Assembly: GCF_055900595.2 (NCBI RefSeq)
Contig: NZ_CM148325.1
Length of the DNA: 64,000 nucleotides
Strand: one strand, 5' to 3'
Part shown: positions 9,208 to 64,000 of the stretch, one piece after another
Layout: each line of letters begins with the position of its first letter
Numbering within the stretch: position 1 is the stretch's first letter
Position numbers and translations under genes: made by a program
The notes under the pieces: generated by a model
What the model saw: the letters and a program-made list of their open reading frames with translations, nothing else
Database searches by the model: none
Told to the model about the DNA's origin: nothing

Positions 9208-10179
9208 TTACTGTTGCAATTCTTTCTCAGTGAAGAGATCGGCAAACAATGCGGTGCTTAAATAACGCTCACCCGATGACGGTAGAATAACCACAATATT
9301 CTTGTTGGTAAAGCTTTCATCTTCTTGTAGTTTCAACGCTGCAGCAACAGCCGCTCCAGAAGAGATACCTGCAAGAATACCTTCCTCTTCCATCAGACGA
9401 CGCGCGGTAGAAATAGCTTCTTCATTGGTGATGCCAATGACTTTATCGACCAGCTTGAGATCAAGATTAGCCGGGATAAAACCAGCGCCAATCCCCTGAA
9501 TTTTATGCGGGCCAGGTTTAATCTCTTCACCTGCCAGCGCCTGGGCGATAACCGGAGAATCGGTTGGCTCCACGGCGACAGAGATGAGATCAGTCTTGCC
9601 TTTAGTGCCTTTAATGTAGCGGCTGACGCCGGTCAGCGTACCGCCAGTCCCAACACCAGCAATAAATACATCAACCTGACCGTCGGTATCTTCCCAGATC
9701 TCCGGACCGGTGGTTTTTTCGTGAATTTCAGGGTTTGCCGGATTGCTGAATTGTTGCAGCAGTAGGTATTTCTCTGGATTGCTGGCGACAATTTCTTCTG
9801 CTTTTTGGATTGCGCCTTTCATGCCTTTAGCACCTTCGGTCAGCACCAGGTTTGCACCTAACGCTTTCAGCAGCTTGCGGCGTTCAATACTCATGGTTTC
9901 TGGCATGGTCAGGGTGAGTTTGTAACCGCGAGCGGCAGCCACATAGGCCAGTGCAATCCCGGTATTACCGCTGGTTGGTTCAACCAGTTCAACGCCTGGT
10001 TTCAGCACGCCGCGCTTTTCGGCATCCCAAATCATATTGGCACCGATACGGCACTTAACGCTGAAGCTGGGGTTACGAGATTCCACCTTCGCCAGAATGC
10101 GTCCGTTACCGATGCGATTCAGGCGAACCAGCGGTGTGTGACCGATAGTCAGCGAGTTATCTTCAAAAATCTTACTCAT
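9208..10179 (-). CDS. cysK: Cysteine synthase A (O-acetylserine sulfhydrylase A)
   Basis: 323 aa, PLP-lysine motif SVKCRIG; recognised sequence. Confidence 0.97.
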
Positions 10180-31919: not shown

Positions 31920-32885
31920 ATGACAAAGTATGCATTAGTCGGTGATGTGGGCGGCACCAACGCACGTCTTGCTCTGTGTGATATTGCCAGTGGTGAAATC
32001 TCGCAGGCTAAGACCTATTCAGGGCTTGATTACCCCAGCCTCGAAGCGGTCATTCGCGTTTATCTTGAAGAACATAAGGTCGAGGTGAAAGACGGCTGTA
32101 TTGCCATCGCTTGCCCAATTACCGGTGACTGGGTGGCAATGACCAACCATACCTGGGCGTTCTCAATTGCCGAAATGAAAAAGAATCTCGGTTTTAGCCA
32201 TCTGGAAATTATTAACGATTTTACCGCTGTATCGATGGCGATCCCGATGCTGAAAAAAGAGCATCTGATCCAGTTTGGTGGCGCAGAACCGGTCGAAGGT
32301 AAGCCTATTGCGGTTTACGGTGCCGGAACGGGGCTTGGGGTTGCGCATTTGGTCCATGTCGATAAGCGTTGGGTAAGCTTGCCAGGCGAAGGCGGTCACG
32401 TTGATTTTGCGCCGAATAGTGAAGAAGAGGCCATTATCCTCGAAATACTGCGTGCAGAAATTGGTCATGTTTCGGCAGAGCGCGTGCTTTCTGGTCCTGG
32501 GCTGGTGAATTTGTATCGCGCGATTGTGAAAGCCGACAACCGCCTGCCAGAAAATCTCAAGCCAAAAGATATTACCGAACGTGCGCTGGCTGACAGCTGC
32601 ACCGATTGCCGCCGCGCGTTGTCGCTGTTTTGCGTCATTATGGGCCGTTTTGGCGGCAATCTGGCGCTCAATCTCGGGACATTTGGCGGCGTGTTTATTG
32701 CCGGTGGTATCGTGCCGCGCTTCCTTGAGTTCTTCAAAGCCTCTGGTTTCCGTGCCGCATTTGAAGATAAAGGGCGCTTTAAAGAATATGTCCATGATAT
32801 TCCGGTGTATCTCATCGTCCATGACAATCCGGGCCTTCTTGGTTCCGGTGCACATTTACGCCAGACCTTAGGTCACATTCTGTAA
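31920..32885 (+). CDS. glk: Glucokinase
   Basis: 321 aa; N-terminal ROK/glucokinase ATP motif [14 protein letters not shown]. Confidence 0.97.
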
Positions 32886-33103
32886 ATCCTTCCTGTTATA
32901 TCGGGAGATAACTCTCCCGATAATCTTTTAAATCAAACAGTTAATTCAATTTTTCTTTGTGTCCCCTCACAAGGCCGACCTGCGTCACACTTCCGTACAG
33001 CGGGATTAATTCTCCAGTAAATGCATTATTTGTCTGGTAACGGCGATTTGTTTTGCACGTTCATAATTTCACTCGTCAACTATCACCGAACGAGGAATTA
33101 ACG

Positions 33104-33430
33104 ATGAGTAAGAAACTGATTGCCTTATGTGCCTGCCCAATGGGCCTGGCTCACACCTTTATGGCCGCTCAGGCGCTGGAAGAAGCGGCGGTAGAAGCCG
33201 GTTATGAAGTGAAAATTGAAACCCAGGGTGCGGACGGCATCCAGAATCGTCTGACCGCGCAGGATATCGCCGAAGCGACCATCATCATCCACTCCGTGGC
33301 GGTTACCCCGGAAGATAACGAACGTTTCGAATCACGCGACGTTTATGAAATCACTTTGCAGGACGCAATTAAAAACGCTGCGGGCATCATCAAAGAAATC
33401 GAAGAGATGATTGCCGCTGAACAACAGTAA
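33104..33430 (+). CDS. fryB: PTS fructose-like EIIB component FryB (start trimmed to MSKKLIAL)
   Basis: 108 aa with EIIB-Fru-type CxxMG active-site cysteine context (ALCACPMGLAHTFMAA). Confidence 0.9.
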   Translation: MSKKLIALCACPMGLAHTFMAAQALEEAAVEAGYEVKIETQGADGIQNRLTAQDIAEATIIIHSVAVTPEDNERFESRDVYEITLQDAIKNAAGIIKEIEEMIAAEQQ

Positions 33431-33451
33431 TATTCGACAGGGATAATTGTT

Positions 33452-34699
33452 ATGGCCATTAAAAAACGCAGTGCAACCGTTGTGCCTGGCGCATCCGGTG
33501 CGGCAGCGGCAATTAAGAATCCGCAGGCCTCTAAAACCAGCTTCTGGGGTGAACTCCCGCAGCATGTGATGTCAGGGATTTCACGCATGGTGCCGACCTT
33601 AATTATGGGCGGTGTGATCCTCGCTTTCAGCCAGCTGATTGCTTATAGCTGGCTTAAAATTCCTGCGGATATCGGCATCATGGATGCGCTTAATAGCGGG
33701 AAATTCTCCGGTTTCGACCTCTCCTTACTGAAGTTTGCCTGGCTGTCACAGTCCTTTGGTGGCGTACTGTTTGGCTTTGCCATACCGATGTTTGCCGCTT
33801 TTGTGGCGAACTCCATCGGCGGCAAACTGGCGTTCCCGGCTGGTTTTATCGGCGGCTTGATGTCTACCCAGCCTACGCAACTGCTGAACTTCGATCCCAG
33901 CACGATGCAATGGGCGACCTCTTCGCCGGTGCCGTCCACCTTCATTGGTGCCCTGATTATTTCTATCGTTGCGGGTTACCTTGTGAAGTGGATGAACCAG
34001 AAAATCCAGTTACCGGATTTCCTGTTAGCGTTCAAAACCACATTTTTGCTACCGATTCTTTCCGCCATTTTTGTCATGCTGGCGATGTACTACGTCATCA
34101 CCCCCTTTGGTGGCTGGATTAACGGTGGTATCCGTACCGTGCTGACCGCCGCGGGTGAGAAGGGCGCGCTGATGTATGCGATGGGTATCGCAGCAGCGAC
34201 CGCCATCGACCTCGGTGGTCCAATCAACAAAGCAGCAGGTTTCGTTGCCTTTAGCTTTACCACCGACCACGTATTACCGGTTACCGCGCGTTCAATCGCT
34301 ATCGTTATTCCGCCGATAGGCCTGGGTCTGGCGACCATTATCGACCGTCGTTTAACTGGCAAACGCCTGTTCAACGCTCAGCTTTATCCGCAGGGTAAAA
34401 CCGCGATGTTCCTTGCTTTTATGGGGATCAGTGAAGGTGCGATTCCGTTTGCGCTGGAAAGCCCCATCACCGCTATTCCGTCCTATATGGTTGGCGCGAT
34501 TGTCGGCTCAACCGCCGCTGTCTGGCTGGGTGCAGTTCAATGGTTCCCGGAATCTGCTATCTGGGCATGGCCGCTGGTCACTAACCTCGGTGTCTATATG
34601 GCGGGGATCGCGCTGGGAGCAATCATTACTGCGCTGATGGTGGTATTCCTGCGTCTGATGATGTTCCGTAAAGGCAAATTGTTAATCGATAGCCTGTAA
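33452..34699 (+). CDS. fryC: PTS fructose-like EIIC component FryC
   Basis: 415-aa polytopic membrane protein of EIIC-Fru family. Confidence 0.9.
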
Positions 34700-34713
34700 G
34701 AAGGAAAATCCAG

Positions 34714-35799
34714 ATGACATTACTCGCTTCGCTGCGCGACTGGCTTAAGGCACAACAACTGGATGCAGTGCTTCTCTCCTCACGGCAGAACAAACAACCG
34801 CATCTGGGGATCTCCACCGGATCAGGCTATGTGGTGATTAGCCGTGAAAGTGCGCACATTCTGGTGGATTCGCGCTATTACGCGGATGTAGAAGCCCGCA
34901 CGCAAGGCTACCAGCTGCATTTGCTTGACGCGACGAACACGCTTACCACTATCGTCAATCAAATCATTGCCGATGAGCAGTTGCAAACGCTCGGTTTTGA
35001 AGGCCAGCAGGTAAGTTGGGAAACCGCGCACCGCTGGCAGTCTGAACTCAATGCGAAACTGGTAAGCGCCACGCCGGATGTGCTGCGGCAAATCAAAACG
35101 CCAGAGGAGGTGGAGAAAATCCGCCTCGCCTGTGGGATTGCCGATCGCGGTGCAGAGCATATTCGCCGCTTTATTCAGGCGGGGATGAGCGAATGCGAGA
35201 TTGCTGCTGAACTGGAGTGGTTTATGCGCCAGCAGGGCGCAGAAAAAGCCTCTTTTGACACCATTGTCGCCAGCGGCTGGCGTGGGGCGCTGCCGCACGG
35301 CAAAGCCAGCGACAAGATTGTTGCAGCGGGCGAGTTTGTCACTCTCGATTTCGGTGCGCTGTATCAGGGCTACTGCTCTGATATGACGCGCACCTTGCTG
35401 GTGAATGGCGAAGGGGTGAGCGCCGAATCTCACCCACTGTTTGATGTGTATAACATTGTCCTGCAGGCACAGCTCGCGGCAATCTCCGCGATTCGCCCCG
35501 GCGTGCGCTGCCAGCAGGTTGACGACGCCGCGCGCCGGGTCATTACAGAAGCCGGTTATGGCGACTATTTCGGTCATAACACCGGTCATGCTATCGGCAT
35601 TGAAGTCCATGAAGATCCGCGTTTTTCACCGCGGGACACCACGACGCTACAGCCAGGGATGTTACTGACCGTGGAGCCGGGGATTTATTTGCCAGGGCGA
35701 GGGGGCGTGCGCATCGAAGATGTCGTGCTGGTTACCCCGCAAGGCGCGGAAGTGCTCTACGCCATGCCAAAAACAGTGTTGCTCACGGGAGAGGCATAA
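34714..35799 (+). CDS. ypdF: Xaa-Pro aminopeptidase YpdF (M24 family)
   Basis: 361 aa with M24 metal-ligand pattern ([13 protein letters not shown], ...VEPGIY...). Confidence 0.9.
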
Positions 35800-36836
35800 T
35801 GGATTTATCGCTATTAAAAGCGTTGAGCGAGGCAGATGCGATCGCCTCCTCGGAACAGGAAGTGCGGCAGATCCTGCTGGATGAAGCGGATCGCCTGCAA
35901 AAGGAGGTGCGATTTGATGGTCTGGGATCGGTGCTGATCCGCCTCAATGAATCGACAGGTCCGAAGGTGATGATCTGTGCGCATATGGACGAAGTGGGAT
36001 TTATGGTGCGTAGCATCTCCCGCGAAGGGGCGATTGATGTCCTGCCAGTTGGCAATGTGCGCATGGCTGCCCGCCAGCTTCAGCCAGTACGGATCACTAC
36101 TCGTGAAGAGTGCAAAATTCCCGGTTTGCTCGATGGCGAGCGGCAGGGGAATGACGTCAGCGCCATGCGCGTGGACATTGGTGCGCGCTCGTATGACGAA
36201 GTGATGCAGGCAGGTATTCGTCCGGGCGATCGTGTCACGTTTGATACCACTTTTCAGGTTCTCCCTCACCAGCGAGTGATGGGTAAAGCCTTTGATGACC
36301 GCCTCGGTTGCTACCTGCTGGTGACGTTACTACGTGAGCTGCACAACACCGAGCTGCCTGCGGAAGTGTGGCTGGTGGCAAGTTCCAGCGAAGAGGTGGG
36401 ATTACGCGGCGGGCAAACCGCCACCCGCGCGGTGTCGCCGGACATCGCCATTGTGCTTGATACCGCCTGCTGGGCGAAAAACTTTGATTATGGCGCGGCT
36501 AACCATCGCCAGATTGGTAACGGCCCGATGCTGGTGTTAAGCGACAAGTCGCTGATTGCGCCGCCAAAACTTACCGCGTGGATCGAAACCGTGGCGGCAG
36601 AAATTGGCGTGCCGTTGCAGGCCGATATGTTCAGCAACGGCGGAACGGACGGCGGGGCGGTGCATTTAACCGGCACTGGCGTACCCACAGTGGTGATGGG
36701 GCCAGCAACCCGCCACGGACATTGCGCCGCATCGATTGCCGACTGCCGCGACATTTTGCAGATGCAGCAGCTTTTATCTGCCCTTATTCAACGTCTTACC
36801 CGTGAGACGGTTGTTCAACTGACGGATTTCAGATGA
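35799..36836 (+). CDS. ypdE: Aminopeptidase YpdE (M42 family)
   Basis: 345 aa, M42 peptidase-like; start overlaps ypdF stop. Confidence 0.9.
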
Positions 36837-36860
36837 TCTCCTGATTAACCCGGAGCGGTT

Positions 36861-39356
36861 ATGTTAACGATTCAATTTCTCTGTCCTTTGCCAAACGGTC
36901 TGCATGCTCGTCCGGCGTGGGAACTTAAAGAGCAGTGCAGCCAGTGGCAAAGTGAAGTCACCTTTATTAATCATCGCCAGAACGCCAGGGCTGATGCCAA
37001 AAGCTCGCTGGCGCTGATTGGCACCAGCACCTTATTTAATGACAGTTGCAGCTTGAACATTAGCGGCAGCGATGAAGAGCAGGCGCGGCGCGTGCTGGAA
37101 GAGTATATCCAGGTGCGCTTTATCGACAGCGACAGCGTTCAGCCGACGCAGGCAGAACTGACGGCGCATCCGCTGCCGCGTTCATTAAGCCGCCTTAACC
37201 CGGATTTACTGTACGGCAATGTGCTGGCAAGCGGCGTCGGCGTGGGTACGCTGACCCTGTTACAAAGCGACAGCCTCGACAGTTACCGGGCGATCCCCGC
37301 CAGTGCGCAAGATTCCACCCGGCTGGAGCACAGCCTGGCAACGCTTGCCGAGCAACTGAACCAGCAATTGCGCGAGCGTGACGGCGAAAGCAAAACCATT
37401 CTCAGCGCCCATTTGTCGCTGATTCAGGATGATGAATTCGCGGGCAATATCCGTCGCCTGATGACAGAACAACATCAGGGGTTGGGTGCAGCGATCATCA
37501 GCAATATGGAGCAGGTTTGCGCCAAACTTTCTGCTTCTGCCAGTGATTATCTGCGCGAACGTGTTAGCGACATTCGCGATATCAGCGAACAGTTACTGCA
37601 TATCACCTGGCCGGAACTGAAGCCGCGCAACAATCTGGTGCTGGAAAAACCGACTATTCTGGTAGCCGAGGATTTAACCCCAAGCCAGTTTTTGAGCCTC
37701 GATTTAAAAAATCTTGCGGGCATGATTCTGGAGAAAACCGGGCGCACCTCGCATACCCTGATTCTGGCCCGTGCCTCGGCGATCCCGGTTTTGAGCGGCC
37801 TGCCGCTGGATGCGATCGCGCGTTATGCCGGGCAACCGGCGGTGCTTGACGCCCAGTGCGGCGTGCTGGCGATTAACCCGAATGACGCGGTGAGCGGTTA
37901 TTATCAGGTTGCGCAGACGCTGGCGGATAAACGTCAGCAACAACAGGCGCAAGCTGCCGCGCAGCAGGCCTATTCCCGTGATAACAAGCGCATTGATATC
38001 GCGGCGAATATTGGCACCGCTCTTGAAGCGCCTGGCGCGTTTGCCAACGGCGCGGAAGGCGTTGGACTGTTCCGTACCGAAATGCTCTATATGGAGCGCG
38101 ACAGTGCGCCGGACGAACAGGAACAGTTTGAAGCATACCAACAGGTGCTACTGGCGGCGGGCGACAAGCCGATTATTTTCCGCACGATGGACATCGGCGG
38201 CGATAAAAGCATTCCTTACCTCAACATTCCCCAGGAAGAGAACCCGTTCCTCGGCTATCGCGCGGTACGTATTTACCCGGAATTTGCTGGTCTGTTCCGC
38301 ACTCAATTGCGGGCTATTTTGCGCGCTGCCAGTTTCGGTAATGCCCAGTTAATGATCCCAATGGTCCACAGCCTCGATCAGATCTTATGGGTGAAGGGCG
38401 AGATCCAAAAAGCGATCGTTGAGCTTAAGCGCGATGGCCTGCGTCATGCAGAGTCGATTACGCTGGGTATCATGGTGGAAGTACCGTCGGTGTGCTACAT
38501 CATCGACCACTTCTGCGATGAGGTCGATTTCTTCAGTATCGGTTCTAACGATATGACCCAGTATCTGTATGCGGTCGATCGTAATAACCCGCGCGTATCG
38601 CCGCTGTATAACCCGATTACGCCATCGTTCCTGCGCATGTTGCAGCAGATTGTTACCACTGCGCATCAGCGGGGTAAATGGGTAGGTATTTGCGGTGAAC
38701 TGGGCGGTGAAAGTCGTTATCTGCCGCTACTGCTTGGACTGGGCCTGGATGAGCTGAGTATGAGTAGCCCGCGTATTCCGGCGGTGAAAAGCCAGCTTCG
38801 TCAACTGGATAGCCAGGCGTGTCGGGAATTGGCTCGTCAGGCATGTGAATGCCGCAGTGCGCAGGAAATTGAAGCGTTACTCACCGCCTTTACGCCGGAA
38901 GAAGACGTTCGCCCACTGCTGGCGCTGGAGAATATCTTTGTTGATCAGTCATTTAGCAATAAAGAGCAGGCGATCCAGTTCCTGTGCGGCAACCTTGGCG
39001 TTAACGGGCGTACTGAACATCCGTTTGAGCTGGAAGAAGATGTCTGGCAGCGGGAAGAGATTGTTACTACTGGCGTTGGTTTTGGCGTGGCGATCCCGCA
39101 CACCAAATCTCAGTGGATCCGTCATTCCAGTATCAGCATTGCCCGGCTGGTGAAACCGGTTGACTGGCAGTCAGAAATGGGCGAAGTCGAACTGGTGATT
39201 ATGCTGACGCTGGGCGCTAACGAAGGGATGAATCATGTGAAAGTCTTCTCGCAGCTGGCGCGTAAACTGGTGAATAAAAACTTCCGCCAGTCGTTGTTTG
39301 CCGCGCAAGATGCACAAAGCATCCTGACGCTGCTGGAAACGGAATTAACCTTCTGA
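36861..39356 (+). CDS. fryA: PTS multiphosphoryl transfer protein FryA (HPr-like, EI-like and EIIA-Fru-like domains)
   Basis: 831 aa; N-terminal HPr-like (LHARPAWEL), central Enzyme I homology closely paralleling ptsI in this same window, C-terminal EIIA domain. Confidence 0.92.
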   Translation: MLTIQFLCPLPNGLHARPAWELKEQCSQWQSEVTFINHRQNARADAKSSLALIGTSTLFNDSCSLNISGSDEEQARRVLEEYIQVRFIDSDSVQPTQAELTAHPLPRSLSRLNPDLLYGNVLASGVGVGTLTLLQSDSLDSYRAIPASAQDSTRLEHSLATLAEQLNQQLRERDGESKTILSAHLSLIQDDEFAGNIRRLMTEQHQGLGAAIISNMEQVCAKLSASASDYLRERVSDIRDISEQLLHITWPELKPRNNLVLEKPTILVAEDLTPSQFLSLDLKNLAGMILEKTGRTSHTLILARASAIPVLSGLPLDAIARYAGQPAVLDAQCGVLAINPNDAVSGYYQVAQTLADKRQQQQAQAAAQQAYSRDNKRIDIAANIGTALEAPGAFANGAEGVGLFRTEMLYMERDSAPDEQEQFEAYQQVLLAAGDKPIIFRTMDIGGDKSIPYLNIPQEENPFLGYRAVRIYPEFAGLFRTQLRAILRAASFGNAQLMIPMVHSLDQILWVKGEIQKAIVELKRDGLRHAESITLGIMVEVPSVCYIIDHFCDEVDFFSIGSNDMTQYLYAVDRNNPRVSPLYNPITPSFLRMLQQIVTTAHQRGKWVGICGELGGESRYLPLLLGLGLDELSMSSPRIPAVKSQLRQLDSQACRELARQACECRSAQEIEALLTAFTPEEDVRPLLALENIFVDQSFSNKEQAIQFLCGNLGVNGRTEHPFELEEDVWQREEIVTTGVGFGVAIPHTKSQWIRHSSISIARLVKPVDWQSEMGEVELVIMLTLGANEGMNHVKVFSQLARKLVNKNFRQSLFAAQDAQSILTLLETELTF

Positions 39357-39358
39357 CG

Positions 39359-40216
39359 TTAGCCCTGAAAACGGGCGCTGTACTCTCCCGGCGTCAGGCC
39401 AAACTGACGCCGGAAGACGCGACAAAAATAGTCGCTGTCCGGAAAGCCGCAACGCTGCGCCACTTCATGAATCGACAGATGATATTTCTGCAAAATCATC
39501 CTCGCCTTCGCCATTCGCACCCAACGCACATATTCGATAAAACGCATTGTTCCATGCTGCGCAAACAGTTTTGACAGATGATTGGGCGTGATATTAAAAA
39601 ACTGCGCCACGTTCTCACGGGTGAGCGGCTGGGCATAATTATCCTGAACCCAGTTACAAATGCTGTGATAGAGAAAATCGCCGCGCGGCTGCGAATTACC
39701 CGGCGGCATATTCACCACGTTGCGGCAAAGATGCAGCAAACTTAACACCAGCGGCTGAATGATATTCTGCTCCAGCGGCGAACGGCTAAGATGGGTGAGG
39801 GCAGTAAGCATTGCTTCACCTTCGCCGCGTTGCAGGCTGGGAAGTTGGATCTGGCGAGCAGGATGCAACAACGACGTGGTGCGGCTATCGTAAAACGATA
39901 ACCCAAGCCAGGTCGGCGCGAATACCAGGCTTAACAGCATTACCGGTTTGTTGTTGACCGGTAAATTAGCCGCGCGCGCTGGAATAAACAGCATTTCTCC
40001 TTCCACCATACGCTGCTGCTTTGCTTCCAGCAGGTTGCCGTATTCGCCGCGTAGCACGATATCCAGACGGGGAAAATCAATACATAAACTGCCCACCGGC
40101 AATGAGGCAGGCTGGCTGGCAAACCAGACGCGCCCCAGTAGTTGCGGGTTAAGCACCAGGCCGCTGAACAGATCGGCGAAAAATTGTTGATCGGCGGGCA
40201 AGCCTGTTGCTTTCAT
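39359..40216 (-). CDS. ypdC: AraC-family transcriptional regulator YpdC
   Basis: 285 aa with C-terminal AraC-type HTH. Confidence 0.9.
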   Translation of the reverse strand: MKATGLPADQQFFADLFSGLVLNPQLLGRVWFASQPASLPVGSLCIDFPRLDIVLRGEYGNLLEAKQQRMVEGEMLFIPARAANLPVNNKPVMLLSLVFAPTWLGLSFYDSRTTSLLHPARQIQLPSLQRGEGEAMLTALTHLSRSPLEQNIIQPLVLSLLHLCRNVVNMPPGNSQPRGDFLYHSICNWVQDNYAQPLTRENVAQFFNITPNHLSKLFAQHGTMRFIEYVRWVRMAKARMILQKYHLSIHEVAQRCGFPDSDYFCRVFRRQFGLTPGEYSARFQG

Positions 40217-40227
40217 GAAAATCCCGA

Positions 40228-40962
40228 TTACAGATGCATTAACTGCCTGAATTCTTTTACTTTGCTACGGCTGACCGGTACTTCAAAATCCAGATCTTTC
40301 AGTCGCAGAATGTAGGTGTTATTAAACCACGGTTCGATTTCGCGGATTTTGTTCAGATTGACACAAAATGAGCGATGGCAGCGGAAAAAATGTGACGGCG
40401 GCAGCTTGCTGCAAAACTCGGTAATGTTCATCGGCATTACGTAGGATTCACGCCGCGTATAGACAAAGGTCATTTTCTCGTGCGCTTCGGCGTAATAGAT
40501 ATCGTTAATTGGCGTGACGATGATGCGCTCATCTTTCACCAGATTAATGGTGTCATTCTCACGCATTACCGTCGTGGCAGGCGTACTGCTGGTCTGCTGT
40601 TGTTGCCAGGCCGCTTCCAGCTTTTGCAGCATTCCTGTAATGCGTGATTCCTGATACGGTTTGAGAATGTAGTCAAACGCCTCCAGTTCAAACGCTTCTA
40701 CCGCATGTTCTTTCCAGGCGGTGATAAATACAATAAACGGTTTATGAGCAAACTGGCTGATGTTTTGCGCCAGCAACACGCCATCCAGCGACGGAATATT
40801 GATATCCAGAAAAATGGCGTCGACGCGGTTATGCTGCAAAAACTTCAACACGTCCAGACCATCGTCAAAGGTGCCGACAATCTCCATCTGGCTGTGCTCT
40901 TTAATCAGCCAGCTCAGTTCCTGTTGTGCCAGGAATTCGTCTTCAACAATGATGACTTTCAC
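40228..40962 (-). CDS. ypdB: LytTR-family response regulator YpdB (GTG start; track ORF begins 18 nt upstream at TTG)
   Basis: Receiver domain with D-D-K pattern plus C-terminal LytTR DNA-binding domain; 244 aa from GTG with GGAG 6-9 nt upstream. Confidence 0.88.
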   Translation of the reverse strand: MKVIIVEDEFLAQQELSWLIKEHSQMEIVGTFDDGLDVLKFLQHNRVDAIFLDINIPSLDGVLLAQNISQFAHKPFIVFITAWKEHAVEAFELEAFDYILKPYQESRITGMLQKLEAAWQQQQTSSTPATTVMRENDTINLVKDERIIVTPINDIYYAEAHEKMTFVYTRRESYVMPMNITEFCSKLPPSHFFRCHRSFCVNLNKIREIEPWFNNTYILRLKDLDFEVPVSRSKVKEFRQLMHL

Positions 40963-40976
40963 AATATCACTCCGGC

Positions 40977-42674
40977 TCAAAGCAATAACGTAGCCTGTGA
41001 GGCGACAGGGGTGCGTTGGTTAGGAATGTAAAACGCAATTTCCGTTCCTGGTTCCAGGCGGCGGATATGCAGCCCCTCGCCATACAATAACTTCACGCGA
41101 TGATGGACATTCAGCAGGCCAATTTTATTGCCCGGCATTTCGTTCGCTTCGACCCGCTCAATGACTTTTGGATCGATGCCGTGCCCGGTATCTCGCACCG
41201 CAATGCGTACCCGATTACCGCACTCTGCAACGCTGATGGTGACAACGCCTTTACCTTTGCAAGGCTGAATACCGTGGACAATGGCGTTTTCCACCAACGG
41301 CTGGATCAGCAGGCTGGGAATGCAGCAATTGACCTCTTCATCAATATCATAGATAACCGTCAGCTTGTCGCCAAAGCGGGCCTGCTCAATGGCAATATAG
41401 TCTTTAATTTGATACAGCTCTTTTTTGATATCGATTTGCTCATCGTCTTTTAATTCAATGTTATAGCGTAGATAACGCGACAGATTAAAGATTAACTGGC
41501 GAGCGGTATCCGGATTCAGACGGATCGACGATGAGATAGCATTCAGAGCATTAAACAGGAAATGGGGATTAATTTTGCTTTGCAGAGCGCGAAGCTCTGC
41601 CTTATTTGCCATTTCACGTAGCTGCTCGGCGCGTGAAACCTCCAGTTGGGTGGAGATGATTTGCGACAGACCGACAGCCATTTCCTGTAATGACGAGGTG
41701 ATCTGATGCGCGTGGCAGTAGTAAATTTTCAGTGTTCCTGTCACCACGCCTTTCTCCCACAATGGGATCACCAGCATCGAATGAATCTCTGGCGTGCGGT
41801 GGGCTTCATCATTATTTTTAATAATGATTTTTCCGTAATTCATTGCCTGACGCGTTGTTGGGCTAATGAAGTCATCGCCATTCTGATAGTTGTGTTCACC
41901 TACGCCAACATAGGCCAGCACATGATCGGTGTTGGTAATCGCTACCGCATCGGCGTGAATATCATCGCGGATAATTTCACAAACTTTGCGTAATGACTCG
42001 CTATTGACATGGCGAAACAGCGGCAGCGTTTTGTTGGCGATATCCAGCGCCAACTTGGCCTGCCGCGCGGCGCTGGCCTCTTTTTCGCCCTCAACGCTTT
42101 GTACCAGCAACACAATAAAGCCGATACAAACGCTGCCGAGGATCATCGGAATCCCGATTTTGGAGACGATATCAATCCCCAGTGCAGTGGTGGGCGCCCA
42201 GACAATCACCAGAATCATCGTCAACGTTTCACATAACATGCCACCGAGAATACCGACGCGCCAGCGCTGTGCTTTGGGGATTTTCAGGTTGATCCAGCCT
42301 GATATGCAACCCGCGAGAATACTGGTGATAAAGCACGGAATTGCCGTCACGCCGCCGATGTCAATTAAATAACGGTGAATACCCGCAATCACACCGGTAA
42401 TGATGCCTACCCACGGGCCAAATAGAATTCCGCCTGACATCACCGCGATAATGCGCACATTAACCAGCGAGCCTTCTACGGGCACGCCGGACCAGGTGCT
42501 GAACAGGGCGAACAGCGAGAAAATGGCGGTAACGGCGAGCAGCTCTTTTGGGGAGTGCGCCGACTTGTGCAACAGTTCGCGAAACAGGCGGATACGGATG
42601 AGAAAGAACAGGCAGATAAGCATTAACGCTGCCCGATCGAAGACCGCCAGCAGCATATTGAATATTTCGTGCAC
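40977..42674 (-). CDS. ypdA: Sensor histidine kinase YpdA (LytS-type: 5TM-LytS membrane domain, GAF, HisKA_3/HATPase)
   Basis: 565 aa; membrane N-terminus, conserved His region ([11 protein letters not shown]), ATPase G-box (DTGHGI). Confidence 0.92.
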
Positions 42675-43050
42675 GGGTGACTCTGAATAAGGATTAAACC
42701 TCTATGATAGGTAACCTGAAGGCCGATGACCAGCAGGCCGTTTTTGAGGAAAGACCACAACTTTAAAAGGGGATTGAAAGTTAAATGGTGTATTAGCAAT
42801 GCATCTCTTGATAATGCATATCTGTTTGGTAAATTTATTGAAATTATAATGTTAATAGATTGGGTGGTAATTTTCTTGTTAGCGTAGATAAATTTCCTGT
42901 TTTTAAAGCGGAGTTCCTCATTTAAGGCTATTAACAAAAATGTTCTAAAACGCTGGACAGACAGAAATTAATCAGGCTATTTTCAAAACAGCCACCATCG
43001 TGGCAGCGTCGCTCGGACGGTCCGGGCGCTCACGTTAATCTGAGGAAATT

Positions 43051-44289
43051 ATGGCTGACACTCGCCCTGAACGTCGCTTTACGCGTATTGATCGTCTCCC
43101 ACCCTACGTTTTTAACATTACCGCTGAACTGAAAATGGCTGCGCGTCGGCGCGGCGAAGATATTATCGATTTCAGTATGGGTAACCCGGACGGTGCGACC
43201 CCGCCGCATATCGTCGAAAAATTATGTACGGTGGCCCAGCGACCGGACACGCATGGTTATTCCACCTCGCGTGGTATTCCGCGGTTACGTCGCGCCATTT
43301 CCCGCTGGTATCAGGATCGTTACGACGTCGAGATCGACCCGGAATCAGAGGCTATCGTCACCATTGGCTCGAAAGAGGGGCTGGCGCATCTGATGCTGGC
43401 GACGCTGGATCACGGTGACACTGTACTGGTGCCTAATCCAAGCTACCCGATTCATATTTACGGCGCGGTGATTGCCGGGGCGCAGGTACGCTCAGTGCCG
43501 CTGGTGGACGGTGTCGATTTCTTCAACGAACTGGAACGCGCCATTCGCGAAAGTTATCCGAAACCGAAGATGATGATCCTCGGCTTTCCCTCGAACCCAA
43601 CCGCGCAATGCGTGGAACTGGAATTCTTTGAGAAGGTTGTAGCGCTGGCGAAACGCTACGATGTGCTGGTGGTCCATGACCTGGCCTATGCCGATATCGT
43701 CTACGATGGCTGGAAAGCGCCGTCAATCATGCAGGTGCCAGGTGCACGCGATGTGGCGGTCGAGTTCTTTACGCTGTCGAAAAGCTACAACATGGCGGGC
43801 TGGCGTATCGGCTTTATGGTCGGTAACAAAACGCTGGTCAGCGCGTTGGCACGTATTAAAAGCTATCACGATTACGGCACCTTTACGCCGTTGCAGGTGG
43901 CGGCGATTGCGGCACTGGAGGGCGATCAACAGTGCGTTCGCGACATTGCCGAACAGTACAAACGCCGCCGTGATGTACTGGTTAAAGGGCTGCATGAAGC
44001 GGGCTGGATGGTCGAAATGCCGAAGGCTTCGATGTATGTCTGGGCGAAAATCCCGGAACCATATGCGGCCATGGGCTCACTGGAATTTGCCAAGAAACTG
44101 CTTAACGAAGCGAAGGTCTGTGTCTCTCCAGGGATTGGCTTTGGCGACTACGGCGACACCCATGTTCGCTTTGCGCTGATTGAAAACCGCGATCGTATTC
44201 GCCAGGCGATTCGTGGAATTAAAGCGATGTTCCGTGCCGACGGTTTACTACCCGCCAGCAGCAAACATATTCACGAAAACGCGGAATAA
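43051..44289 (+). CDS. alaC: Glutamate-pyruvate aminotransferase AlaC (YfdZ)
   Basis: 412 aa class-I aminotransferase with PLP-lysine context ([12 protein letters not shown]). Confidence 0.95.
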
Positions 44290-51155: not shown

Positions 51156-52100
51156 ATGCTAACATTTTTTATTGGCGATTTATTGCCTATTATCGTAATC
51201 ATGCTGTTGGGTTATTTTAGCGGCAGACGAGAAACTTTTTCAGAAGATCAAGCCCGGGCATTTAATAAACTGGTATTAAATTACGCTCTTCCTGCGGCCC
51301 TATTTGTTTCTATTACCCGGGCAAACAGGGAAATGATTTTTGCGGACACTCGCCTGACCCTTGTATCACTTGTGGTTATTGTCGGATGTTTCTTTTTCTC
51401 CTGGTTTGGTTGCTACAAATTTTTTAAACGTACCCATGCAGAAGCAGCAGTATGTGCATTAATTGCAGGTTCACCTACCATTGGATTCCTGGGGTTTGCA
51501 GTTCTCGACCCTATTTATGGTGATTCCGTATCAACAGGTTTAGTGGTAGCAATTATTTCTATTATTGTTAACGCAATTACTATTCCTATTGGTCTGTATT
51601 TGCTGAATCCCTCCTCAGGAGCGGATGGTAAGAAGAATAGCAATCTGAGCGCGTTAATCTCTGCGGCAAAGGAGCCAGTCGTATGGGCACCTGTTCTGGC
51701 AACGATCCTGGTGTTGGTTGGGGTAAAAATTCCGGCAGCATGGGATCCAACCTTTAATCTGATTGCGAAGGCCAACTCAGGGGTAGCGGTATTCGCTGCG
51801 GGTTTGACTCTGGCTGCACATAAATTCGAGTTCAGTGCTGAAATTGCTTATAACACCTTCCTGAAGCTGATTCTGATGCCACTGGCACTGCTTCTCGTTG
51901 GTATGGCATGTCATTTGAACAGCGAACATCTGCAGATGATGGTACTGGCAGGCGCATTACCGCCGGCATTCTCCGGAATCATTATTGCCAGCCGGTTTAA
52001 TGTCTACACCCGCACTGGTACAGCGTCATTGGCTGTTAGCGTGCTGGGTTTTGTCGTCACGGCTCCCTTGTGGATTTATGTCAGTCGACTGGTTTCATAA
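51156..52100 (+). CDS. yfdV: AEC-family membrane transporter YfdV
   Basis: 314-aa polytopic membrane protein. Confidence 0.9.
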
Positions 52101-58002: not shown

Positions 58003-59166
58003 GTGGAACAGATTAATTCAAATAAAAAACATTCTGACAGAAGAAAATATTTTGCTTTATTAGCAGTGGTTTTATTTATTGCGTTTTCAGGAGCCTATGC
58101 CTATTGGTCACTGGAATTAGAAGACATGATTAGTACAGATGACGCCTATGTTACGGGGAATGCTGATCCAATTTCTGCACAAGTCTCAGGCAGTGTCACT
58201 GTCGTTAATCATAAAGATACGAACTTTGTTCGACAGGGTGACATTTTAGTTTCACTGGATAAAACTGATGCTACGATTGCACTCAATAAAGCTAAAAATA
58301 ATCTGGCAAATATTGTGCGACAAACGAATAAACTATACTTACAGGATAAACAATACAGTGCCGAAGTCGCTTCAGCACGTATCCAGTATCAACAATCTTT
58401 AGAAGATTATAATCGTCGTGTGCCGCTAGCAAAGCAGGGGGTTATTTCAAAAGAAACGCTGGAGCACACCAAAGATACGTTAATAAGTAGCAAAGCGGCA
58501 TTGAATGCAGCTATTCAGGCTTATAAAGCGAACAAAGCCTTAGTAATGAACACACCATTAAATCGCCAGCCACAAGTTGTTGAAGCTGCGGATGCAACCA
58601 AAGAAGCCTGGTTGGCGCTTAAACGTACGGATATTAAGAGTCCGGTTACCGGTTATATTGCCCAGAGAAGTGTTCAGGTCGGCGAAACAGTGAGTCCTGG
58701 ACAATCGTTAATGGCTGTCGTACCGGCACGTCAAATGTGGGTTAATGCCAACTTTAAAGAAACACAACTCACGGATGTACGGATTGGTCAATCGGTTAAT
58801 ATAATCAGCGATCTTTATGGTGAAAATGTTGTGTTTCATGGTCAGGTGACAGGGATCAATATGGGAACCGGCAATGCGTTCTCCTTATTACCTGCACAAA
58901 ATGCGACAGGGAACTGGATCAAAATCGTTCAGCGTGTACCGGTTGAGGTGTCTCTGGATCCAAAAGAACTCATGGAACATCCCTTGCGCATTGGTTTATC
59001 GATGACTGCAACCATTGATACCAGGAACGAAGACATTGCCGATATGCCTGATCTGGCTTCATCCGTGACGTCAATGCCTGCTTACACCAGTAAGGCCTTA
59101 GTTATCGATACCAGTCCGATAGAAAAAGAGATTAACAACATTATTTCTCATAATGGACAACTTTAA
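58003..59166 (+). CDS. emrK: Multidrug efflux periplasmic adaptor EmrK (EmrA paralog)
   Basis: 387 aa HlyD-family membrane fusion protein. Confidence 0.93.
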   Translation: MEQINSNKKHSDRRKYFALLAVVLFIAFSGAYAYWSLELEDMISTDDAYVTGNADPISAQVSGSVTVVNHKDTNFVRQGDILVSLDKTDATIALNKAKNNLANIVRQTNKLYLQDKQYSAEVASARIQYQQSLEDYNRRVPLAKQGVISKETLEHTKDTLISSKAALNAAIQAYKANKALVMNTPLNRQPQVVEAADATKEAWLALKRTDIKSPVTGYIAQRSVQVGETVSPGQSLMAVVPARQMWVNANFKETQLTDVRIGQSVNIISDLYGENVVFHGQVTGINMGTGNAFSLLPAQNATGNWIKIVQRVPVEVSLDPKELMEHPLRIGLSMTATIDTRNEDIADMPDLASSVTSMPAYTSKALVIDTSPIEKEINNIISHNGQL

Positions 59167-60832: not shown

Positions 60833-62161
60833 TTAACGGCCTTTAGCCAGATATTGCTTCATCTCTTCTTCCGGCACCATTCCACCTCCTGTCGCCCACA
60901 CCAGATGAGTGGCATTACGCAGTTGTTCTGTGCTGAAACCTTGCATCTGTTGGTAAATTACTGATGCGCACACGCGCTGAGGCCCGGCCATACCCGCCAG
61001 TGCTGAAGGCTCAAGACGAATGTCTTCTTCCTGCGCCAGCCAGCCAAGCATGTCATACATGGTTTGATCGCTAAGGGTATAGAAGCCATCCAGCAGACGC
61101 TCCATTGCCCGCCCGACAAAGCCTGATGCGCGACCAACAGCAAGGCCATCCGCTGCGGTAAGGTTGTCGATACCAATATCCTGAACAGAAATCTGATCGT
61201 GTAATCCAGTATGGACGCCTAACAGCATACAAGGGGAGTGCGTGGGTTCGGCAAAAAAGCAGTGAACATGATCGCCAAACGCCAGTTTAAGACCGAATGC
61301 GACGCCACCAGGACCACCGCCAACGCCACACGGCAGATAGACAAACAGAGGGTTACCAGCATCGACGATACGACCTTGCTTGGCAAATTGCGCTTTAAGA
61401 CGCTGGCCTGCGACGGAATACCCAAGGAACAACGTGCGGGAATTCTCGTCATCAATAAAGAAACAGTTCGGGTCAGACTGCGCTGCTTTACGTCCTTCCT
61501 CGACGGCAACCCCATAATCTTGCTCATATTCCACGACCGTAACGCCATGGCTGCGCAGTTTCTCTTTTTTCCATGCTCGGGCATCAGCAGACATATGCAC
61601 TGTCACCTTAAAGCCAATGCGGGCGCTCATAATGCCGATTGATAACCCCAGATTTCCGGTTGAGCCCACAGCAATGCTGTATTGGCTAAAGAACTGTTTA
61701 AACTCCGGAGAAAGCAGTTTGCTGTAGTCATCTTCAAGCGTCAGCAACCCTGCTTCCAGAGCCAGTTTTTCTGCATGTGCCAGGACTTCATAAATCCCGC
61801 CGCGTGCTTTTATGGAGCCGGAAATAGGCAAATGGCTATCTTTTTTCAGTAACAGTTGCCCGCTGATCGGTTGCTGATATTCCTTTTCCAGCCGTTTTTG
61901 CATAGCCGGAATGGCAACCAGTTCTGATTCAATAATCCCTCCAGAGGCAGCCGTTTCAGGAAATGCTTTTGCCAGATAGGGGGCAAAACGAGATAAGCGC
62001 GCATGGGCGTCCTGAACATCCTGTTCGGTCAGGCCAACATAAGGTAAACCTTCAGCCAATGAGGTCGTGCCAGGATTGAACCAGGTGGTTTCTTTAAGAG
62101 CAACCAGATCCTTTACCAACGGATACTGGGCGATGAGCGAGTTCATTTTAGCGTTTTCCAT
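60833..62161 (-). CDS. dsdA: D-serine ammonia-lyase (D-serine dehydratase)
   Basis: 442 aa [19 protein letters not shown]...; PLP-lysine context SGSIKARGG. Confidence 0.95.
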
Positions 62162-62361
62162 AGTATGTCTCTTTGCGCTTCGATGATAAATGACAGCAGG
62201 AATGTGCCCGCCAGAGCGACGACTGAAGCGATAAATGTCGCTGTCGTATAGTATTTATATGTTTCACTGAGCGTAGCGCCGCAAAATTGTTTCATCAGCC
62301 AGAAAAACGAGTCCGTAACGATCGTGCAGCCAATCGCAATAATTTCCGGGCTGATGTCTGG
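62143..62361 (-). pseudogene. dsdX: 3'-terminal remnant of D-serine transporter gene dsdX (about 72 codons, 5' truncated)
   Basis: Hand translation of minus strand gives [60 protein letters not shown]..., a GntP-family C-terminus; frame closed by in-frame TAA at 62362-62364; overlaps dsdA start. Confidence 0.5.
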
Positions 62362-62617
62362 TTACAGCCACAGCACAATGATCCATATTTATATTTTTTC
62401 TCCGGGTGGGTGATGCCAGTCGGCATGTTTTACCTACTTGTCTGCATGGTGACTCGTTGGCGAGAACAGAGGCGGAATTGGTTACAATTGTCCGGGAATT
62501 CTTGTTATTTTTTACTGTATTGTCGTGTCGGGTGATAGGACGTTAAGAATATCGCTGGATCTCGCCAGTGACGTCTGTTTCTGCTACAGTGCCCGTTTTA
62601 CGGCAAACGGCTTGGGT

Positions 62618-63613
62618 ATGGCTTCATTAAAGGATGTCGCACGCCTGGCGGGAGTGTCGATGATGACTGTCTCCCGGGTGATGCATAATGCAGAATCTGT
62701 GCGTCCTGCAACGCGTGACCGCGTATTGCAGGCAATCCAAACCCTGAATTATGTTCCTGATCTTTCCGCTCGTAAGATGCGCGCTCAGGGACGTAAGCCG
62801 TCGACTCTCGCCGTGCTGGCGCAGGATACTGCTACCACTCCTTTCTCTGTTGATATTCTGCTTGCCATTGAACAAACCGCCAGCGAGTTTGGCTGGAATA
62901 GTTTTTTAATCAATATTTTTTCTGAAGATGACGCTGCCCGCGCGGCACGTCAGCTGCTTGCCCTCCGTCCGGATGGCATTATCTATTCTACAATGGGACT
63001 GAGGCATATCACGCTGCCTGAGTCTCTGCATGGTGAAAATATTGTATTGGCGAACTGTGTGGCGGATGACCCAGCGTTACCCAGTTATATCCCTGATGAT
63101 TACACTGCCCAATATGAAGCAACACAGCATTTGCTCGCGGCAGGCTATCGTCAACCGTTATGCTTCTGGCTACCGGAAGGTGCGTTGGCAACAGGGTATC
63201 GTCGGCAGGGATTTGAGCAGGCCTGGCGTGATGCTGGACGAGATCTGGCTGAGGTGAAACAATTTCACATGGTCATAGGTGATGATCACTACACCGATCT
63301 CGCAAGTATACTCAATGCCCACTTCCCGTCTGGAAAACCAGATTTTGATGTTCTGATTTGTGGTAACGATCGCGCAGCCTTTGTGGCTTATCAGGTTCTT
63401 CTGGCGAAGGGGGTACGTATCCCGCAGGATGTCGCCGTAATGGGCTTTGATAATCTGGTTGGCGTCGGGCATCTGTTTTTACCGCCGCTGACCACAATTC
63501 AGCTTCCACATGACATTATCGGGCGGGAAGCTGCATTGCATATTATTGAAGGTCGTGAAGGGGGAAGGGTAACGCAGATCCCTTGCCCGCTGTTGATCCG
63601 TTGTTCCACCTGA
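62618..63613 (+). CDS. cscR: LacI-family sucrose operon repressor CscR (start trimmed to MASLKDV)
   Basis: 331 aa from trimmed start; LacI-type HTH (MASLKDVARLAGVSMMTVSRVMHN) and periplasmic-binding-like sugar domain. Confidence 0.85.
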   Translation: MASLKDVARLAGVSMMTVSRVMHNAESVRPATRDRVLQAIQTLNYVPDLSARKMRAQGRKPSTLAVLAQDTATTPFSVDILLAIEQTASEFGWNSFLINIFSEDDAARAARQLLALRPDGIIYSTMGLRHITLPESLHGENIVLANCVADDPALPSYIPDDYTAQYEATQHLLAAGYRQPLCFWLPEGALATGYRRQGFEQAWRDAGRDLAEVKQFHMVIGDDHYTDLASILNAHFPSGKPDFDVLICGNDRAAFVAYQVLLAKGVRIPQDVAVMGFDNLVGVGHLFLPPLTTIQLPHDIIGREAALHIIEGREGGRVTQIPCPLLIRCST

Positions 63614-63620
63614 TATTATG

Positions 63621-64000
63621 TTACCCCAGTTGCCAGAGTGCTCCATGTTTCAGCACGGCCACTCCGTGGGCGGCATAGAGCGACAGTTCCCGTTCTTCTG
63701 GCTGCGGATAGATTCGGCTACTCATCACTGCTTCCCCGTCGTTAATAAATACTTCCACGGATGATGTATCGATAAATATCCTTAGGGCGAGCGTGTCACG
63801 CTGCGGGAGGGGAATACTACGGTAACCATCTAAATTCTCGTGTGGGTAATACCGCCACAAAACAAGTCGCTCAGATTGGTTATCAATATACAGCCGCATT
63901 CCCGTGCCGAGCTGTAATCCGTAATGTTCGGCATCGCTGTTCTTCAGAGCCCAGTGCAACTGAATCTCAACCGCTTGCGCGTTTTCCTGCAAAACATATT
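63621..64000 (-). CDS. cscA: Sucrose-6-phosphate hydrolase / invertase CscA (GH32), C-terminal part only; gene runs off right edge
   Basis: Minus-strand ORF ending 7 nt from cscR stop, C-terminal beta-sandwich-like sequence; convergent cscR-cscA arrangement typical of the csc locus. Confidence 0.75.
   Translation of the reverse strand, partial: YVLQENAQAVEIQLHWALKNSDAEHYGLQLGTGMRLYIDNQSERLVLWRYYPHENLDGYRSIPLPQRDTLALRIFIDTSSVEVFINDGEAVMSSRIYPQPEERELSLYAAHGVAVLKHGALWQLG

Follow-up and report, generated by a model that had tools for sequence, protein, structure and literature searches.

The araBAD and rhaBAD promoters of Escherichia coli share a layout in which a CRP site lies upstream of direct-repeat half-sites for an AraC-family activator (AraC or RhaS), and these half-sites reach the −35 region. 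E. coli K-12 also carries frvABXR and sgc, cryptic fructose-like phosphotransferase system (PTS) operons with M42 peptidase paralogues. Here we compare with these systems the fry PTS operon and the regulatory genes beside it, ypdA, ypdB and ypdC, in a stretch of 64,000 nucleotides (nt) from contig NZ_CM148325.1 of RefSeq assembly GCF_055900595.2; this whole stretch is called the window below. We consider it probable, though well short of certain, that the locus consists of two units joined by insertion (the ypdAB pair and a cassette of ypdC with the fry genes), that YpdC is the predicted activator of fry, and that YpdAB does not control fry directly.

The two-component system itself is known. 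Pyruvate is the signal to which YpdA and YpdB, also called PyrS and PyrR, react by inducing yhjX. The site bound by YpdB is a direct repeat of GGCATTTCAT, yhjX is its sole direct target, and LytTR sites are made of 9–11-nt repeats with 11–13 nt between them (PMC4847170). In S. Typhimurium a single pyruvate-sensing system has been reported (PMC9504724). YpdC is counted among the uncharacterised AraC-family proteins (PMC4797297), and FryABC has been assigned neither a function nor a substrate (PMC5364489). A link of YpdC or YpdAB to fry was not found in the literature searched, which did not include the original YpdAB target study. A preliminary description of this DNA, made from the letters alone, had placed the known YpdAB target elsewhere in the genome and had called control of fry by the neighbouring cluster unsettled. 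Both statements agree with the published record: yhjX is the documented output, and YpdC is still listed as uncharacterised and gave no peaks in chromatin immunoprecipitation with exonuclease digestion (ChIP-exo).

Gene content and chromosomal context

The genes of the locus, together with the block whose history is at issue, are as follows.

31920–32885, + strand: glk (RefSeq annotation and open reading frame, ORF)
33104–33430, + strand: fryB, fructose-family PTS EIIB (Pfam PTS_IIB; TIGR00829)
33452–34699, + strand: fryC, fructose-family PTS EIIC (Pfam PTS_EIIC; TIGR01427 just under the cut-off)
34714–35799, + strand: ypdF, M24 (Xaa-Pro/Met-type) aminopeptidase (Pfam Creatinase_N and Peptidase_M24; NCBIfam NF007310)
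35799–36836, + strand: ypdE, M42 aminopeptidase (Pfam Peptidase_M42; NCBIfam NF007421)
36861–39356, + strand: fryA (ptsA), fused HPr, Enzyme I and EIIA(Fru) (Pfam PTS-HPr, PEP-utilisers_N, PEP-utilizers, PEP-utilizers_C and PTS_EIIA_2; NCBIfam)
39359–40216, − strand: ypdC, AraC/XylS-family regulator of 285 amino acids (Pfam HTH_18/HTH_AraC)
40228–40962, − strand: ypdB (pyrR), LytTR-type response regulator of 244 amino acids (annotation; Pfam Response_reg and LytTR)
40977–42674, − strand: ypdA (pyrS), LytS-type sensor histidine kinase with a GTG start (ORF, RefSeq and Pfam)
43051–44289, + strand: alaC (RefSeq annotation and ORF)
32971–40216, unstranded: ypdC-fry cassette of about 7.25 kb, a block kept together at two chromosomal locations (flank clustering and empty sites)

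The fry operon thus runs fryB-fryC-ypdF-ypdE-fryA on the + strand (33104–39356). Pfam and NCBIfam find in FryABC the EIIB, EIIC and EIIA(Fru) domains and the energy-coupling proteins of a fructose-family PTS, with FryC borderline against TIGR01427 (score 157.2, cut-off 157.55). As in frvABXR and sgc, a fructose-family PTS is combined with an M42-family peptidase-like gene and a dedicated regulator (for fry, a predicted one), and no substrate has been assigned; fry differs from both in its fused HPr/Enzyme I/EIIA protein, its second peptidase (M24) and the AraC type of its regulator.

On the other strand, ypdC begins 11 nt past the ypdB stop codon, and ypdA and alaC diverge across a 376-bp spacer. 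The ypdA, ypdB and ypdC ORFs are 100% identical to the annotated E. coli genes, and their coordinates match the RefSeq annotation. ORFs, annotation and Pfam therefore agree with the identities and positions given in the preliminary description. The adjacency to fryA that it claimed is as close as 2 nt between stop codons (fryA, 39354–39356; ypdC, 39359–39361); where it had left the orientation as ‘divergently or convergently’, the two genes are convergent, tail to tail, and the divergent option falls away.

The window is E. coli chromosome, and positions 33000–43100 are 100% identical to several RefSeq genomes. Among 5,426 complete genomes of the species, 5,413 contain the 10.1-kb block at ≥80% coverage, and ypdABC with fry is therefore a fixed feature of E. 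coli.

Beyond E. coli the block comes apart. A pattern scan of 100,044 species genomes gave 34 loci with a YpdC orthologue, and three further loci bring the set to 37; all were searched by tblastn with ten E. coli proteins. YpdC orthologues are restricted to Enterobacteriaceae, and in 36 of the 37 loci, from more than 10 genera, fryA lies beside ypdC in convergent orientation, the sole exception being a Citrobacter amalonaticus locus. By comparison, ypdAB is present in only 15 of the loci, belonging to Escherichia, Citrobacter, Pseudocitrobacter and Kluyvera, and at least 19 loci from at least seven genera have ypdAB and fry unlinked.

The unlinked arrangements define a second chromosomal site. 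In Enterobacter, Pseudenterobacter, Lelliottia, Huaxiibacter, Pluralibacter, Superficieibacter and Buttiauxella, ypdC-fry lies between rnk and rna, two genes that are adjacent in E. coli, i.e., the site is empty there. The reciprocal empty site, alaC-ypdA-ypdB-glk with nothing between ypdB and glk, occurs in Superficieibacter sp. 1612_C1, Enterobacter asburiae and Kosakonia, and Superficieibacter sp. 1612_C1 carries both units, unlinked, in the same named strain (loci L035 and L040). The two units also differ in divergence. Orthologues of YpdB from Enterobacter, Kosakonia and Superficieibacter are about 90% identical to it. For the pair E. coli and Enterobacter the figure is about 90% for YpdB, compared with 67% for YpdC and 68–75% for FryA, YpdE, YpdF and FryC. 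YpdC evolves at the same pace as the fry proteins.

Salmonella provides a third arrangement, alaC-ypdC-fryA-ypdE-ypdF-fryC-fryB-glk, with all fry genes intact and no ypdAB. The region 5′ of Salmonella ypdC aligns to the last few tens of bases of ypdB, a remnant that marks ypdAB as deleted there, in agreement with the single pyruvate-sensing system of S. Typhimurium (PMC9504724).

The edges of the mobile block can be placed. Conservation across contexts ends at the ypdC ATG on one side (the left edge), with none upstream of it, and just upstream of a CRP-like site before fryB on the other (the right edge). From gene order, flanks and empty sites we conclude with high confidence that ypdC belongs to the 7.25-kb ypdC-fry cassette and that ‘ypdABC’ is a fusion made by insertion. 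By the same comparison ypdAB appears as a core two-component system, sited between alaC and glk in many genera. The first unit would then be the pyruvate-responsive LytS/LytTR pair in its ancestral place between alaC and glk, with its output, yhjX, elsewhere. The second would be a self-contained cassette of ypdC, the convergent fryB-fryC-ypdF-ypdE-fryA operon (encoding two aminopeptidases and a fructose-family PTS that brings its own Enzyme I/HPr/EIIA protein) and the fryB promoter. This cassette lies between ypdB and glk in the Escherichia/Citrobacter/Kluyvera/Salmonella lineage, and its insertion with the ypdC start 11 nt after the ypdB stop would account for the apparent ‘ypdABC operon’. 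Linkage of ypdAB to fry is confined to one lineage, and the view of ypdA, ypdB and ypdC as one functional cluster, taken in the preliminary description, is not supported by the comparison, which separates ypdAB from the ypdC-fry cassette.

Two side observations concern these loci. The ypdC/fryA junction has taken up DNA repeatedly in Citrobacter and Kluyvera: the inserts measure about 1.1 kb in loci L010 and L011 (10853–11990), 6.8 kb in L038 (10856–17700) and 8 kb in L019 (6520–14740), and in the C. amalonaticus locus L013 (10859–20855) no fry gene lies within 10 kb of ypdC. In addition, an Enterobacter-type ypdC-fry locus is present in two assemblies named ‘Chryseobacterium sp. 18061’ and ‘Citrobacter sp. 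18056’ (entries L036 and L026); both are probably mislabelled or contaminated.

The fryB promoter and the search for YpdB sites

Approximately 200 bp upstream of fryB were aligned from 21 species representing both chromosomal contexts. Upstream of about position 32970 the sequences are unrelated, each with the terminator of its own neighbour gene (in E. coli the glk hairpin), while downstream of 32970 they share a conserved footprint of TCACA, a tandem repeat, CATAAT and a spacer of constant length. The elements are:

32899–32922, + strand: glk terminator hairpin (10-bp stem and T-run), where the preceding transcription unit ends
32971–32992, + strand: candidate CRP site aagGCCGAcctgcgTCACActt, 8 of 22 columns invariant in 21 species, 7 of 10 positions matching TGTGA-N6-TCACA
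33001–33020, + strand: predicted distal operator half-site CGGGATTAATTCTCCAGTAA, the first repeat copy, conserved in 21 of 21 species, 22.2 bits against the position weight matrix (PWM)
33021–33040, + strand: predicted proximal operator half-site ATGCATTATTTGTCTGGTAA, the second repeat copy, 8 of 20 columns invariant, 29.5 bits, abutting or overlapping the −35
33062–33067, + strand: putative fryB −10 hexamer CATAAT, invariant in 21 of 21 species

The tandem 20-bp direct repeat has the consensus nnGCATyAtTtnTCCrGtAA, and within each species its two copies agree at 11–15 of 20 positions; those of Lelliottia, for example, are CTGCATCATTTATCCAGCTA and AAGCATCATTTATCCGGTAA. From the proximal copy to the −10 only the length is constant (20–21 nt), not the sequence. 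The −35 position (33039–33044) reads AACGGC, a poor match, and none of the 21 species has a usable −35. A promoter scan of 32850–33150 found no complete sigma-70 promoter, as expected if fryB depends on an activator. Further upstream, the right half of the candidate CRP site, TCACA (32985–32989), is perfect and invariant with conserved flanks, whereas in the weak left half only a GA six bases upstream is conserved; on this pattern we infer that the element is a CRP site. Transcription would start at about 33074, some 7 nt past the −10, which would put the repeat at about −73 to −34 and the centre of the CRP site at about −92.5. In CRP-dependent promoters the site occupies helical-face positions such as −61.5, −72.5 or −92.5, and the predicted start would bring the present candidate to the last of these.

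This architecture resembles that of araBAD under AraC and rhaBAD under RhaS at several points. There are two direct-repeat half-sites about 20 bp apart, of which the proximal one reaches the −35; a poor −35 goes with a good −10; some 20 bp separate the operator from a CRP-like site upstream; and the regulator gene adjoins the catabolic or transport operon that it is proposed to control. Activators of the AraC/XylS family bind repeated half-sites of about 17–20 bp that adjoin or overlap the −35, and the conserved repeat at 33001–33040 has this form. The differences from araBAD and rhaBAD are that the period is 20 bp compared with 21 bp at araI1-I2, that ypdC is convergent rather than divergent with its operon, and that a distal looping half-site like the O2 of AraC was not found with the PWM, which across the cassette and its flanks gave neither such a site nor a second operator that was conserved in position and scored ≥14 bits. 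On its sequence, fry would have an ordinary promoter of the AraC/CRP sugar-operon kind, with an uncharacterised regulator and a cryptic PTS.

The PWM, built from 42 half-sites, is specific for this promoter. Within the window the only tandem site is at fryB, with 51.7 bits compared with 5.4 for the next. In 1.42 Mb of related loci, every locus with fryB, 10 of them outside the training set, has the site at the fryB promoter, and only seven weak single half-sites occur elsewhere. The strongest half-site-like match in the window beyond fryB (CTGTATTGTTTATCCTGTAA, 17 bits, 58339–58358, − strand) lies inside emrK, has no tandem partner and is probably due to chance.

One alternative is that YpdC binds the repeat but represses, thereby keeping the operon silent. 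The fry genes are indeed silent (‘cryptic’) under laboratory conditions, repression is known for some AraC-family proteins, and a protein sitting over the −35 could block RNA polymerase. However, 21 species lack a usable −35 and yet keep the −10 invariant, which is the signature of a promoter that requires an activator, and the positions of the CRP-like site and of the repeat match the activated ara and rha layout. We therefore regard repression as unlikely.

A different alternative would give the repeat to YpdB: the phosphorylated protein would control fry directly, with 33001–33040 as a divergent LytTR-type site and fry as a second pyruvate-responsive output of YpdAB. YpdA has the domains of a LytS-type kinase (5TM-5TMR_LYT 2e-42, GAF 6e-07, His_kinase PF06580 4e-25 and HATPase_c 7e-11 in Pfam) and YpdB a receiver and a LytTR DNA-binding domain (Response_reg 2e-24, LytTR 2e-34); they are the same YpdA and YpdB that act on yhjX. 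We scanned both strands of the whole window for GGCATTTCAT-N9–14-GGCATTTCAT and compared the counts with first-order Markov simulations. Two matches have at most 4 mismatches and 42 have at most 6; simulated sequence gives 1.0 ± 0.9 and 47 ± 7, respectively. The closest match upstream of fryB (32886–33103) has 8 of 20 mismatches, and the closest in the ypdA-alaC spacer (42675–43050) has 7 of 20. Since the counts are at the simulated level and the two promoter regions match this poorly, the sequence offers no support for YpdB acting at the fryB or ypdA promoter. In lacking the documented repeat, both promoters differ from the pyruvate-sensing LytS/LytTR systems YpdA/YpdB on yhjX and BtsS/BtsR on btsT.

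Among candidates set aside, the two best YpdB-like matches in the window (51884–51914 and 40215–40247, 4 of 20 mismatches) were rejected because the counts equal those of simulated sequence; the second, on the − strand, reads GGCAGTTAAT-N13-GGATTTTCAT and spans the ypdB stop and ypdC start, and its quality too is at the simulated rate. When the ypdA-alaC spacer was screened for direct and inverted repeats, three short direct-repeat pairs came up; with spacings of 15 and 38 bp they do not have LytTR spacing, and they are unconserved even within Escherichia and Citrobacter. The search for LytTR-type repeats that the preliminary description had suggested (33000–33104 and 42675–43050) thus yields the conserved tandem repeat of 20-bp period at 33001–33040, which is not a YpdB match, and in the spacer nothing but short non-conserved repeats.

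What speaks for direct control by YpdB is the geometry, since a 20-bp period fits 9–11-nt repeats spaced 11–13 nt apart (PMC4847170), together with the GCATT that the repeat core GCATTATTT has in common with GGCATTTCAT and the presence of ypdAB beside fry in essentially all E. coli. Nevertheless, matches as weak as 8 of 20 mismatches, or better, are abundant by chance; ypdAB and fry are unlinked in many loci, as described above; and yhjX is reported as the only direct target (PMC4847170). In addition, fry does not keep company with ypdAB as a member of the YpdB regulon would: in Salmonella the operon is intact and the repeat fully conserved after deletion of ypdAB. The mismatch to the YpdB motif and this retention in Salmonella point to YpdC rather than YpdB, and we consider direct control by YpdB highly improbable.

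YpdC as the predicted activator of fry

HTH_18 (1e-20) and HTH_AraC (4e-13) match residues 204–281 of YpdC, the C-terminal double helix-turn-helix (HTH) region of about 100 amino acids, and Foldseek aligns this DNA-binding region with the domains of MarA, SoxS, AraC and AdpA at TM-scores of 0.8–0.9 (target-normalised). The AlphaFold model (mean confidence, pLDDT, 84) has a beta-rich cupin-like N-terminal domain, a helical linker and the double HTH. Full-length Foldseek matches are Rns, CsvR and ToxT; the N-terminal domain, which has no Pfam match, resembles the RhaR regulatory domain, BgaR and cupins at weak E-values (3e-4 to 8e-3). As modelled, YpdC is a two-domain AraC-family protein, with a putative cupin-like N-terminus and a C-terminal double HTH, as in AraC and RhaS.

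In the mechanism that we favour, a sugar-like or glycopeptide-like ligand would bind the cupin-like domain, and a YpdC dimer would occupy the tandem repeat at 33001–33040 (about −73 to −34). With a poor −35 directly beside the repeat, RNA polymerase would depend on YpdC for recruitment to the invariant −10, CATAAT, and cAMP-CRP, bound at TCACA near −92.5, would assist in the manner of araBAD and rhaBAD. YpdB would not act at the fryB promoter. The only link from YpdAB to fry in E. coli would be indirect, through transcription of ypdC from the ypdA promoter. That YpdC binds the repeat, and that it activates rather than represses, we infer from promoter architecture and genomic linkage.

Several points weigh against this interpretation. 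The CRP assignment (with a left half matching at 2 of 5 positions), the transcription start and the choice of activation over repression are all read from the DNA sequence. The period and the GCAT core of the repeat would suit LytTR geometry as well, and since Enterobacter-type genomes retain ypdAB elsewhere, Salmonella is alone in having the operator without YpdB. In C. amalonaticus (L013) ypdABC is retained where no fry gene lies within 10 kb, i.e., ypdC persists without an adjacent fry operon. About 5–10% of E. coli and Shigella YpdC sequence clusters are truncated, which suggests weak selection. Finally, tagged YpdC was one of two HTH proteins without ChIP-exo peaks in a screen of 40, and the authors suggested that it was inactive under their conditions (PMC8464067). 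An activator that needs a ligand or is poorly expressed would be expected to give such a null result, but so would a non-functional protein.

The last three points, and the fact that ypdC has no conserved promoter of its own, could also mean that YpdC is not the fry regulator at all, but acts on another target or is decaying, and that the fryB repeat is bound by a transcription factor encoded elsewhere. However, ypdC is the only regulator gene that moves with fry between the two chromosomal sites, and a tandem direct repeat abutting the −35 is the pattern of the AraC family and not a palindrome of LacI, GntR or Cra type. In addition, YpdC is full length, with 90 residues invariant across 17 orthologues. 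This explanation is rather unlikely.

Two kinds of variant protein were noticed beside the full-length form. Truncated or frameshifted clusters (P0078, P0081, P0102 and others) encode 187–250 amino acids without an HTH; one has 200 members and one, from Shigella flexneri, has 90. Rare E. coli proteins of 317 amino acids (receiver, LytTR and AraC-HTH) and 373 amino acids (receiver and AraC-HTH), in clusters P0122, P0124 and P0003, look like YpdB-YpdC fusions formed by deletion.

Expression of ypdC and significance

For ypdA, on the − strand, a promoter scan gives a candidate:

42704–42732, − strand: candidate ypdA promoter TGGTCA-17 nt-TATCAT

Both CTGGTCATC and TATCATA are invariant in the six of six aligned genomes that bear ypdA, and they are missing in Salmonella. 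When 200 bp upstream of ypdC are aligned across contexts, no promoter is conserved; conservation does not extend beyond the ATG. What precedes the ATG differs with the context: in E. coli it is ypdB, in Enterobacter a gene for a flavin reductase, in Superficieibacter and Pluralibacter yet another gene, and in Salmonella the deletion scar. Because ypdC has no conserved promoter of its own, it is probably transcribed in E. coli from the ypdA promoter, together with ypdAB. In all contexts bar the Salmonella scar, ypdC stands directly behind an unrelated co-directional gene; the Enterobacter-type flavin reductase gene (206 amino acids; 9379–9999 in locus L003, 9378–9998 in L004) ends 1–2 nt ahead of the ypdC start. 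Autoregulation of ypdC through GCAT...TGGTAA strings at 42798–42880, which look like fry half-sites, was considered and rejected: the PWM finds no match there and the region is unconserved.

At the other end of ypdC there is no intrinsic terminator between the convergent genes (39354–39412). A perfect 9-bp palindrome, CGGCGTCAG (39389–39397) and CTGACGCCG (39404–39412), lies inside the ypdC 3′ end, where it falls in the conserved coding motif RRQFGLTP. The gap between fryA and ypdC is 0–3 nt in Enterobacter-type loci and 104 nt in Salmonella. From this arrangement, convergent read-through and antisense overlap at the junction are likely.

These features allow a reading in which the insertion would have created a new regulatory wiring specific to the Escherichia/Citrobacter lineage, one that links the two-component operon to fry by co-transcription and antisense interference and not by binding of YpdB. 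Since ypdC lacks its own promoter and begins 11 nt past ypdB, the level of the fry activator would be set by how strongly the pyruvate-sensor operon is transcribed, and the fry and ypdABC transcripts would collide tail to tail, with stop codons 2 nt apart and no terminator between them. The cassette would be a mobile, self-energised PTS for an unrecognised class of substrates, for example sugar-peptide conjugates, given its two aminopeptidases. We hold this extended reading to be quite unlikely.

Some further features lie outside these two units. The spacer is by far the most conserved in the roughly 75 bp just before alaC (42975–43050), which hardly vary from Escherichia to Kluyvera and Salmonella and hold two small hairpins. 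The segment has no Rfam match and folds not significantly better than shuffled sequence (z = −1.8); it could be a conserved leader or operator of alaC. An Rfam scan of 32800–43200 at E ≤ 1 gave no match. Towards the end of the window (approximately 61000–64000; record 1551935–1556156) a truncated dsdX-type permease pseudogene beside dsdA is followed by a LacI-family regulator and cscA, the gene for sucrose-6-phosphate hydrolase, an order that indicates insertion of sucrose (csc) genes at the D-serine locus in this strain.

Few AraC-family regulators of E. coli K-12 are still uncharacterised, and YpdC is one of them. What is new here is a specific predicted operator, 33001–33040, and with it a promoter model of CRP-like site, tandem repeat and invariant −10, which predicts that fryB depends on ypdC and crp and is independent of ypdB. 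A fry-constitutive strain, once available, could be used for substrate screens. The comparison also corrects the picture of the operon: ‘ypdABC’ is a conserved pyruvate sensor fused to the probable regulator of an inserted cassette, which explains why ypdC never fitted YpdAB signalling.

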